A stretch of 64,000 bases of DNA from a virus, in the IMG/VR virus record IMGVR_UViG_3300045988_161343; one strand, given 5' to 3'. The position numbers and the translations under genes are program-made. Position 1 is the stretch's first letter, and each line of letters starts with the position of its first letter. Positions 19,081-20,427 of the stretch are shown in pieces. The notes under the pieces are model-generated. The model saw only the letters and a program-made list of their open reading frames with translations, was not told the origin of the DNA and made no database searches.

Positions 19081-19216
19081 AGGCGTAAGGCTTATGCAGC
19101 AAATTTACTTTTGAAAGTTCACCTAAAATGAATTATATTATTTTTCAAAATTGAGCCTTGATTTAATTAATATAGTTTATTTGCCGGTGTGGTGGAATGG
19201 TAGACACAAGGGACTT

Positions 19217-19954
19217 TTGACTTAGCAAACGTTAAAATGGAGTGCCTAAGAGGAAACTTTTAGAGCAGAAGTTGGCTAAAACGGTGAATGGCTAAGAGAA
19301 CGCCGTGCTAAGTTTTGGAACACATTCTAAAAAATTGGACGACACTCATTAAAATGCCTCTTTTAATTTTTAAATAATAATGAAAGAGAGGTAATATAAA
19401 TGAGAACTGATATTTTAGAACGCAAAGAAGAAATTGAGCAATGGATTACTGAAGGTAAGACTAAAGCTCAAATGGCAAGAGAATTAGGTTGTAATCCTAA
19501 AACAATTAATCCAGTATTAAAAAAGCTTGGCCTTGAATATGCTGGAAATCAAGGTTGTAAAGGATTGTCAAAACCTAATGGACATGAATTATCTTTGTTA
19601 GAATACTTGGAAAAAAGTATTGATATACAGAGTAATAAAGTAAGAAAAAAACTTCTTGATGAAGGTTATAAAGAGTATAAATGTGAATGTTGTGGATTAA
19701 CCGAATGGTTAGGAGACCCAATTCCTTTAGAACTTCATCATAAAGATGGAAATCATTTTCATAATGAATTAGATAATTTTCAATTATTATGTCCAAATTG
19801 TCATGCCAAAACCTCTTCTTATCGTGGAAAAAATTGTTCCAAATAAATGTGTAGAGAGTATATACCAACTATCTAAGTGCAAGTCGTGCATATGATAAAG
19901 ACGTATTCCAGACTACAACACAGAAATGTGGCTATGGTGACATAGAGTAGTAAG
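19217..19954 (+). mobile_element. group I intron (738 nt) between U34 and A35 of tRNA-Leu(UAA), carrying an HNH homing endonuclease ORF
   Basis: Insertion follows the wobble U and the intron ends in G (..gtagtaag|aaaa), same site as the classical tRNA-Leu(UAA) group I intron; internal ORF 19400-19846. Confidence 0.6.
19400..19846 (+). CDS. HNH homing endonuclease (intron-encoded)
   Basis: CECCGLTEW...LELHHKDGNHFHNELDNFQLLCPNCH HNH/zinc-finger motif; RBS agagagg; TAG-free. Confidence 0.7.
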   Translation: MRTDILERKEEIEQWITEGKTKAQMARELGCNPKTINPVLKKLGLEYAGNQGCKGLSKPNGHELSLLEYLEKSIDIQSNKVRKKLLDEGYKEYKCECCGLTEWLGDPIPLELHHKDGNHFHNELDNFQLLCPNCHAKTSSYRGKNCSK

Positions 19955-20427
19955 AAAATCCCTCGGTGGCAACACCATGCGGGTTCGAGTCCCGCCACCG
20001 GCACCATTAAACAATAGTAGCTAACGGCAGTTGAACAGACGGGTCGGGGCTAACATAGAAAGGTTAGCAGGTAGTACGGCGGTAGGTAACAAATCCGCAA
20101 GTCGAAATGAGTCGGGAAATCCGAATGATACGGCTTAGATGTTTTCCTCATTTGAGGTTTGGATGGAGATTTTAGGCGAATGGTAACAACTTTTGACTGC
20201 CATCCTGTAAAGCGACCATGAAACCGGGTCATAGCTACCATACTATTGTTTATTCTTAATGTGCGGTTTAAATTCCGCCACTGGTATTAAAATACAAAAG
20301 GACCAATTGTATTAGTGGCATATAGTATAGGTAAAAAAATTACATCGAACAGGAGGTCATATACCCTTAGTAGAAGACTCGGACGGCGAGTGCCTCATCC
20401 GATATGCTGCGAATTATAAAATAATAT

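Follow-up and report, generated by a model that had tools for sequence, protein, structure and literature searches.

A putative IC3-type group I intron with an HNH endonuclease gene in a phage tRNA-Leu(UAA) gene

Introduction

What is the element that cuts a phage tRNA-Leu(UAA) gene in two inside its anticodon, and can it be expected to splice and to move? This question is raised by positions 19183-20006 of a stretch of 64,000 nucleotides (nt) belonging to the IMG/VR virus record IMGVR_UViG_3300045988_161343 (the whole stretch is referred to as the window below, and other contigs and loci carry L numbers). A first-pass annotation, made from the letters alone, had proposed a group I intron encoding an HNH homing endonuclease and sitting at the insertion point known from cyanobacteria and plastids. 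Investigating the locus together with its relatives, we consider it very probable that the phage tRNA-Leu(UAA) gene is indeed interrupted by a group I intron of the IC3 type, which is inserted after U34 and has an HNH gene in its P6 loop, and that splicing and homing would proceed as outlined below. That the window derives from a phage, as had been assumed, is borne out by genes for T4-type topoisomerase II subunits, DNA ligase, endolysin and baseplate proteins, as well as by 99%-identical IMG/VR contigs.

The interrupted tRNA gene and its intron-less allele

When the two exons (19183-19216 and 19955-20006) are joined, they give an 86-nt class II tRNA, which ARAGORN folds as tRNA-Leu(taa), with 7 bp in the acceptor stem and 3 bp in the D stem. 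The variable arm is long, a T arm is present and the 3' end carries A73 and CCA; the anticodon stem reads AGGGA/UCCCU and the loop CUUAAAA. The earlier description of the two halves as a perfect class II tRNA-Leu(UAA) is thereby upheld by the fold and also by nature, as exactly this spliced 86-nt gene occurs uninterrupted in another phage. A scan of IMG/VR for the predicted spliced junction returned five contigs. In L216 (IMGVR_UViG_3300029858_000001, 157.5 kb), both flanks are 95-99% identical to the window and the window exons are 100% identical to the intact gene; the alignment of window 18158-19216 ends at L216 position 1422 and is taken up again at L216 position 1423 by window 19955 and what follows. 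At tRNA-Leu the two phages differ by a single precise 738-bp insertion, whose end bases permit no sliding of the junction. Because L216 carries the gene uninterrupted, the limits of the insert (19217-19954, 738 nt) between U34 and A35 are known to the base: it starts after U34 (19216) and its last base is G19954. The boundaries are confirmed without relying on any model. The wobble-base insertion, the terminal G and the classical U34/A35 site had all been called correctly, and the search for intron-less alleles in other phages, which had been recommended, was rewarded by L216.

The same split architecture, with covarying anticodon stems, was found in about 105 viral and 83 bacterial loci, and because of this recurrence it lies far beyond chance. 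A competing reading of the split gene as a suppressor tRNA with the anticodon UUA was ruled out by the intron-less allele.

Group I identity of the insert

Because of Rfam matches of its relatives, covariation, homology to the Azoarcus ribozyme and the fold, the insert is, as far as sequence and predicted structure can tell, a genuine IC3-type group I intron. The helices of the window copy (Table 1) were projected on an untrimmed alignment (A1) of the window intron with 34 natural relatives that lack an open reading frame (ORF), 35 sequences in all. Standard pairs fill 92.0% of the cells, compared with 31-41% when the partners are slid by one to three columns; both sides have changed in 54 of the 74 pairs (19-30 in the slid controls), and the covariation score is 0.453 versus 0.05-0.09 for the slid versions, a value reached by none of 500 shuffles. 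Covariation on A1 is strong for P2, P3, P4, P6, P7, P8 and P9, so the P1-P9 fold suggested as a check holds in its core helices, all of which pair in the window copy; all columns invariant in the family are kept there as well. Both helices of the P3/P7 pseudoknot are supported by compensatory changes, P3 as given in Table 1 (relatives have, for example, AGCUGG/CCAGCU or UGAUGG/CCAUCA) and P7 in two pairs, with CG, GC, GU and AU alternating at columns 770/886 of A1 and UA and CG at columns 771/885. The pairs flanking the bulged A in P7 (G19854-C19909 and G19856-C19908) and A19855 itself are invariant in 35 of 35 sequences, and G19856-C19908 is presumed to form the guanosine-binding site. Columns 10-13 and 107-110 of A1, which correspond to P1, are paired in 94%, and in tRNA-Leu(CAA) relatives C34 pairs with the same guide G. 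A nested minimum-free-energy fold, in which the ORF loop was replaced by GAAA, recovers P4, P8, the three-way junction of P9 and the inner stem of P2. Most relatives carry a canonical CCUAAG...UAUGG receptor in P8, and the corresponding internal loop of the window copy is expected to be the docking site for the GAAA tetraloop of P2.

In Rfam, searches at E <= 1 gave no group I match in the first five homologue loci, and the first match came only from searching a short stretch of a 208-nt homologue. ORF-less L100, with a 208-nt intron, scores 54.3 bits against Intron_gpI (RF00028; gathering score 50), and L032, likewise ORF-less, reaches 49.9 bits along the complete model (E = 5e-12), in an alignment that yields the same helices as those derived by hand. 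Other relatives, the Ruminococcus copies included, score below the gathering threshold. A profile hidden Markov model (HMM) of the family, compared with the Azoarcus IC3 ribozyme (sequence taken from PMC8890501), gave 37.6 bits (E = 4.2e-11), and among 2000 shuffles no score exceeded -0.7 bits; the alignment spans P2 to the 3' strand of P7 and includes the P8 receptor.

These data also bear on the idea that no group I intron is present and that a free-standing homing endonuclease cassette, or another mobile element, landed in the anticodon loop. The closest characterised relatives of the encoded protein, the F-Tfl enzymes of phage T5, are free-standing genes between tRNA genes and would fit such a history; relatives of 205-350 nt without any ORF, however, retain the whole conserved RNA, and together with their Rfam matches, the covariation including the P3/P7 pseudoknot and the Azoarcus homology they already contradict this idea, to which we attach practically no credence. 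The earlier group I assignment of the insert therefore stands.

Two parts of the structure deserve separate mention. P6 accommodates the endonuclease gene: ORF-less relatives have a short hairpin at its position, whilst in the window its 3' strand consists of the last three codons of the ORF, and the stop codon opens J6/7. The second is a helix, here called L1-L5, between intron nucleotides 4-10 and the short segment enclosed by the strands of P4. In about 100 family members the mean longest pairing between these segments is 6.3, versus 4.9 +/- 0.1 with permuted partners, and the pairing itself varies widely (CUUAGC/GCUAAG, UGUAUUC/GAAUACA, CCCUGAU/AUCAGGG, UGUUUGU/ACAAACA, UCCAUUGAG/CUCAAUGGG and more). 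We know of no such helix in the IC3 introns described so far.

Two other structural assignments were rejected. Taking CCAGACUAC...GUAGU as the R/S elements together with P7 left no place for the 3' strand of P3; the segment is P9, and P7 lies, according to the covariation, at 19854-19861/19903-19909. The second candidate, a local hairpin GUGUA...UACAC at about 19849-19865, clashes with P7, as well as with L010, whose ORF is inserted after the 5' strand of P7.

Table 1. Features of the split tRNA-Leu(UAA) locus in window coordinates
Feature	Position	Strand	Remarks
Sigma-70-like promoter match, TTGAAA-17-TATATT	19111..19139	+	about 44 nt upstream of the tRNA; 10/12 positions; weak evidence
tRNA-Leu(UAA) exon 1	19183..19216	+	acceptor 5' strand, D arm, anticodon stem 5' strand (19209-19213), C32 U33 U34
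Group I (IC3-like) intron	19217..19954	+	738 nt, ends in omega-G 19954; evidence: intron-less allele L216, covariation, Rfam RF00028 on homologues, Azoarcus HMM
P1	19214-19217 / 19239-19242	+	C32-U33-U34 and intron U1 with the internal guide GGAG; U34.G19240 at the 5' splice site; read from sequence
L1-L5 long-range helix	19221-19226 (CUUAGC) / 19291-19296 (GCUAAG)	+	stands in place of a local P5 hairpin
P2 hairpin	19243-19252 / 19257-19267	+	one bulged A; GAAA tetraloop 19253-19256; all 10 pairs change on both sides
P3	19270-19275 (AGUUGG) / 19865-19870 (CCAACU)	+	4/6 pairs compensatory
P4	19281-19286 / 19301-19306	+	encloses short L5; 100% paired; U-A/A-U flip in 12/35 sequences
P6 stem	19314-19321 / 19836-19843	+	endonuclease gene in the loop; 8/8 pairs compensatory across the family
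Hairpin over ribosome-binding site and start	19345..19404	+	buries Shine-Dalgarno GAGAGG (19386-19391) and AUG (19400-19402); -16.6 kcal/mol, z = -4.07
HNH homing endonuclease gene (predicted)	19400..19846	+	148 aa; N-terminal helix-turn-helix, C-terminal CxxC...HH...N...CxxCH
P7	19854, 19856-19861 / 19903-19909	+	A19855 bulged; 99.2% paired
P8 hairpin	19871-19881 / 19887-19896	+	11-nt-receptor-like internal loop UCUAAG...UAUGA
J8/7	19897-19902 (AAAGAC)	+	with P7 3' strand aligns to the Rfam consensus gAAGAUAUAGUC
P9 three-way junction	19912-19916 / 19947-19951 (ACUAC/GUAGU)	+	closes GAAA (19923-19926) and GUGA (19937-19940) hairpins; minimum-free-energy fold recovers all three stems
Omega-G	19954	+	3' end set by the intron-less allele
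tRNA-Leu(UAA) exon 2	19955..20006	+	A35 A36 A37 A38, anticodon stem 3' strand (19959-19963), variable arm, T arm, acceptor 3' strand, A73, CCA

The endonuclease gene and intron mobility

The insert contains a single substantial ORF (19400-19846), which matches an HNH endonuclease family of PHROGs (E = 1.7e-26) and in whose translation the motif CxxC...LELHHKDGN...N...CPNCH is visible. By tblastn it aligns along its entire length with HegA of T5-like phages at about 50% identity. The BF23 and T5 records annotate HegA as H-N-H endonuclease F-TflIV; the T5 F-Tfl enzymes are homing endonucleases encoded in a tRNA gene cluster (PMC2330249, citing Akulenko et al. 2004). Both the PHROGs match and the relation to HegA support the previous assignment of the ORF as an HNH endonuclease. 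Megablast against the INPHARED phages found nothing, and distant blastn matched phages in the HNH part only. The protein is 100% identical in L011 and 97-99% identical in L075, L113 and L030.

The Shine-Dalgarno sequence and the AUG of the gene sit in the 3' arms of a nested hairpin, and in the homologue L012 a pairing over the start is apparently kept with a different sequence, judged by eye. Intron endonucleases of phage T4 have occluded start sites; the window hairpin is similar, which we take as a lead only.

Concerning mobility, alleles with the intron (window) and without it (L216) coexist in near-identical phages. Furthermore, the window intron is 96% identical over its 738 nt to the introns of L030 and L113, whose tRNA-Leu exons are just 73-76% identical to those of the window; the sequence shared by the three sets of exons around the site is GGGACUU/AAAAUCCC. 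Because a 96%-identical intron is found in divergent exons and an intron-less allele exists, the evidence points to a movement of the intron by homing. The earlier statement that the intron is mobilised by its HNH ORF has thus gained evidence from natural populations with respect to the movement; the activity of the enzyme itself remains a prediction. Within the family, homologous HNH genes are placed in L1 or P6, HNH_3 genes in L1 and LAGLIDADG_2 genes between P7 and the 3' strand of P3, the usual picture of cassettes invading peripheral loops.

The HNH gene of the window contains no in-frame TAG, and its homologues in L012, L033, L004, L005 and others contain one to four; one TAG of the L012 homologue aligns with a Gln of the window protein.

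Proposed splicing and homing, and what speaks against them

The tRNA-Leu gene would be transcribed as a precursor, in which the intron would fold into the P1-P2 and P4-P6 domains and the P3-P7-P8-P9 core, the GAAA tetraloop of P2 docking in the P8 receptor and the L1-L5 helix linking P4 with the substrate helix. The nucleophile would be an external guanosine at the G19856-C19908 pair of P7; it would attack after U34, which forms the U.G pair with the internal guide; omega-G19954 would then occupy the guanosine site and the exons would be ligated, the anticodon stem holding them together in the meantime. The predicted product is a functional tRNA reading UUA and UUG in an AT-rich phage. The endonuclease probably is made sparingly, because its ribosome-binding site and AUG are buried in the hairpin. 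During a mixed infection, its target for cutting or nicking would be the tRNA-Leu allele that lacks the intron, around GGGACUU/AAAAUCCC, the minimal site being predicted within GGGACTTAAAATCCC, and repair from the intron-containing genome would copy the intron into the intron-less allele.

Several observations weigh against this scheme and should be considered together. Rfam Intron_gpI does not hit the window copy, also when a 1-kb stretch is searched with E <= 10; the Rfam scan once proposed as a check consequently failed, although this appears to be a false negative, as short ORF-less homologues do match and the 514-nt P6 loop holding the ORF (19322-19835) most likely explains the miss. P1 lies beyond covariation testing, the exon CUU and the guide GAG being invariant, and in P2 and P7 of the window copy G.U pairs stand in place of the G-C pairs of relatives, which could weaken its folding. 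On the protein side, Pfam reports HTH_38 and HNH (PF01844), both below the curated cut-off (HNH with 18.7 versus 21.4 bits), and a PDB sequence search with the ORF found no HNH relative, only helix-turn-helix regulators. The presence/absence pattern could also stem from precise loss of the intron. Finally, splicing, the activity and target of the endonuclease and its translational control are what we infer from sequence.

Some of these points would suit a tRNA-Leu pseudogene, in which a decayed group I intron can no longer splice and the gene has been inactivated; the failure of Rfam on the window copy and the two weakenings from G-C to G.U are what one would expect of it. Against such decay, the family-invariant columns are all preserved, every core helix pairs, the exons have not decayed (they equal the intron-less allele at every position) and the same copy is maintained in several contigs. 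We regard a pseudogene as very unlikely.

A second group of points concerns the enzyme. The intron might splice whilst its endonuclease is inactive or no longer site-specific, in which case it would be a vertically inherited passenger and the distribution would reflect intron loss or ordinary recombination in the tRNA region. The sub-threshold Pfam score, the occluded translation start and the many ORF-less relatives, which demonstrate that endonuclease genes decay in this family, all lean in this direction. On the other hand, the ORF is intact and 97-100% conserved in five contigs with its CxxC/HH/N/CxxCH motif kept, its full-length relation to HegA of T5/BF23 links it to an enzyme (F-TflIV) listed among the T5 homing endonucleases, and the near-identical introns in exons of 73-76% identity are hard to explain without site-specific transfer. 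An inactive endonuclease thus seems improbable to us, albeit less so than a pseudogene, and a spliced, homing IC3 intron is the reading retained in the following sections.

Relation to known introns and endonucleases

The classical site and intron type have been designated as the 'Leu.3Ug' IC3 intron (10.1101/2020.01.27.920355). With the cyanobacterial and plastid tRNA-Leu(UAA) intron, the window copy shares the gene and the insertion point (CUU/...g/AAAA, U34/A35; 10.1101/2020.01.27.920355, PMC13011429). Common to both are further the U.G pair at the 5' splice site, the omega-G at the 3' end and a compact core without P2.1 or P5abc, with the anticodon stem holding the exons. The differences lie in the phage host and the HNH gene in P6, whereas the cyanobacterial and plastid tRNA-Leu introns, to our knowledge, carry no ORF; moreover, the family of the window has the L1-L5 helix instead of a local P5 and a three-way-junction P9. 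What the profile comparison establishes at the sequence level is direct homology to the Azoarcus IC3 intron, not specifically to the cyanobacterial/plastid one. This homology runs from P2 through the 3' strand of P7, with the guide directly upstream of P2 in both; both have the P2 GAAA tetraloop, a J8/7 of the AAG(A/G)C type and, in most members of the family, a CCUAAG...UAUGG receptor in P8 and P7 as GACUA/UAGUC. The Azoarcus intron differs in that it interrupts another tRNA at another position of the anticodon loop, is without an ORF, has a simple P9 and forms a local P5 hairpin that comes with a receptor of its own.

HNH genes in tRNA-Leu(UAA) introns of Bacteroidota are mentioned in one sentence of a paper in mSystems (2026; PMC13011429). 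They share intron family and site with the window (Paludibacteraceae/Bacteroidales L126, L130, L160 and others) and their endonucleases are 41-45% identical, but the bacterial ORF lies in the 5' L1 region and not in P6, and the contigs are chromosomal or belong to metagenome-assembled genomes rather than to phages. HegA (F-TflIV) of T5/BF23 is about 50% identical over all 148 amino acids. The F-Tfl HNH enzymes of T5/BF23 and SegB of T4 resemble the window enzyme in acting, or being encoded, in phage tRNA gene clusters (PMC2330249); the genes of T5 F-Tfl and T4 SegB are, however, free-standing between tRNA genes and not intronic, and SegB is a GIY-YIG and not an HNH enzyme.

Megaphages of the Lak group also have phage tRNA genes with conserved introns, which the authors of the report on them called enigmatic and did not manage to classify with Rfam (10.1101/356790). 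In Lak-C1 (L220, MK250029.1, locus 890-1625), tRNA-Leu(UAA) is split at 34/35 by the same family (nhmmer E = 2.6e-12), and Lak-B1 (L219, MK250020.1, locus about 1346-1663) has a related intron (E = 3.5e-10) in a class I tRNA, where CUCU/intron/AAA implies the anticodon CUA and the site 35/36. Rfam finds nothing at the intron loci of Lak-C1 or Lak-B1, and no endonuclease ORF was seen for the Lak introns in the passages of the preprint that were consulted. Judging from the profile matches, the 'enigmatic' Lak tRNA introns include group I introns of the window family. Lak-C1 has an apparent second group-I-like insert in the D loop (GGU/AAAGUG...UUUUUG/AGACAC), with a P7-like pair GACUAUA/UAUAGUC.

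According to a review of bacterial group I introns from 2014, all phage introns known at that time were located in protein-coding genes, despite the many tRNA genes of phages (PMC3984707). Our search of the literature, which was incomplete, found no paper describing a group I intron in a phage tRNA gene, and the Lak preprint was the sole report on introns of phage tRNAs that it yielded. The intron of the window and its more than one hundred relatives in phage tRNA genes contradict the review-level view that phage introns are restricted to protein genes. The type of element is known and its mechanism is textbook knowledge; the phage tRNA context, the breadth of the family, the link to bacteria and the consequences for annotation are unexpected. 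The classical tRNA-Leu(UAA) ribozyme is common in the tRNA clusters of phages, which have it in common with bacteria of rumen and gut, and it is apparently mobile there; the pair of phages with and without the intron, together with a T5-HegA-like enzyme, offers a natural system for homing into an RNA gene.

A broader reading, which we advance tentatively, as possible rather than probable, joins these observations. Phage tRNA clusters would constitute a large overlooked reservoir and exchange route of IC3 tRNA introns, the family moving between phages (Lak included) and gut or rumen bacteria (Ruminococcus, Paludibacteraceae) and gaining interchangeable HNH, HNH_3 and LAGLIDADG cassettes (in L1, P6 or between P7 and P3'), which are related to the free-standing enzymes of T5 tRNA clusters. 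In phages that recode TAG, homing might be switched on only once the neighbouring suppressor tRNA has been made, given the in-frame TAG codons of endonuclease genes, and the previously undescribed L1-L5 helix, in place of a local P5, might tether the substrate helix to the core.

Distribution of the family

The 3' part of the intron supplied a 24-nt motif that occurs in 13 IMG/VR contigs; the P4-L5-P4' pattern was found in at least 119 IMG/VR contigs and in 88 genomes of bacterial species. Nearly all matches lie in split tRNA genes with inserts of 187-1087 nt, and the family is nearly always located at 34/35 of a tRNA(UAA), with the solution CTT/AAAA in about 90 viral and 83 bacterial loci. 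Bacterial copies are always at 34/35 of tRNA-Leu(UAA); their carriers are Ruminococcus albus 8, R. flavefaciens FD-1, R. callidus ATCC 27760 (chromosome), Oscillospiraceae, other Clostridia and Paludibacteraceae/Bacteroidales. The Ruminococcus copies are about 238 nt long and ORF-less, and the core of the window intron is about 80-82% identical to them, whereas many copies of Paludibacteraceae/Bacteroidales measure about 690 nt and have an HNH gene in L1. For the introns of Ruminococcus/Oscillospiraceae the identity to the window intron is about 80%, a hint as to where a host of the phage might be sought.

Not all of the split genes are tRNA-Leu(UAA). Class I tRNAs with the anticodon UAA, which do not resemble tRNA-Leu and have no long variable arm, contain the same intron at 34/35 in L001, L043, L069, L072, L108 and L111 (in L001: GGGGCGGUA...GCGGACUU/AAAAUCCGCACAGUCUGGGUCCGAAUCCCAGGCGCCCUACCA). 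The same family, always after position 34, also splits tRNA-Leu(CAA), tRNA(UAG), a class I tRNA(UAU) and probably tRNA(UUU) (L015, L065, L077, L084, L089, L095; L022, L035, L068, L071, L094, L104, L117, L122; L119; L093). In the tRNA-Leu(CAA) copies a C-1:G Watson-Crick pair replaces the U.G of P1; Leu.3Cg introns have been reported from Proteobacteria only (Williams preprint, 10.1101/2020.01.27.920355).

Thirteen viral and bacterial loci (L014, L018, L022, L023, L035, L045, L062, L068, L071, L079, L094, L104, L122) have introns of 750-850 nt in which no ORF of 80 amino acids or more was found in the direction of the intron, also when TAG was taken as a sense codon; opposite-strand ORFs, recoding of TGA or decayed endonuclease genes may account for them. 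Short matches of 77-90% to P3-P4-L5-P4' were obtained in MG545917.1 (Vibrio phage VEN, 38713-38783), KR534323.1 (Pseudoalteromonas phage H101, 8075-8112) and OL799327.1 (Aeromonas phage BUCT695, 40122-40161), the last one inside the DNA polymerase gene. All three might represent group I introns whose P4-P6 domain is related.

Consequences for tRNA annotation

The split tRNA-Leu (19183-20006) was missed when the window was searched with ARAGORN in its normal mode and with the Rfam tRNA model; ordinary tRNA finders report five tRNAs and one tRNA with a CUA anticodon near it. The intron mode of ARAGORN places an intron at 37/38 and calls a 'tRNA-Stop(tta)', which was rejected, position and anticodon both being wrong. 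On relatives the same mode yields 'Phe(gaa)', 'Ser(tga)' or 'Trp(cca)', calls which were corrected by a solver based on stem complementarity. Standard annotation therefore overlooks intron-split tRNAs, and intron modes miscall their anticodons as stop, Phe, Ser and others. Because annotation misses or miscalls such genes, phage tRNA repertoires and counts of 'suppressor tRNAs' are biased.

Neighbourhood of the split gene

Upstream of the tRNA lies a sigma-70-like match (Table 1), which is only suggestive of a promoter, because a scan of the region found 17 sites versus 7 expected and is uninformative in DNA as AT-rich as this.

The phage of the window reads TAG as sense. With TAG left open, frames on the + strand tile the structural regions 255-16140, 20579-25072 and 52283-62426; the frame 20579-24184 comprises 1202 codons with 17 in-frame TAG, and the DNA-metabolism genes at about 26-51 kb have none. 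The tRNA with the CUA anticodon (19007-19081) is situated 100 nt upstream of the split tRNA-Leu.

The tRNA block is flanked by a ROOL RNA (17521-18114, 320 bits) and a RAGATH-33 RNA (20020-20132, 139 bits); the latter starts 14 nt past the CCA of the split tRNA-Leu and follows the tRNA in several related contigs, too. Further downstream, about 165 nt of the window (20254-20420) are absent from the near-identical L216. This segment holds a piece resembling the T arm and the 3' acceptor strand of a tRNA (GTGCGGTTTAAATTCCGCCACTGGTA) and may be a tRNA remnant or another small insertion.

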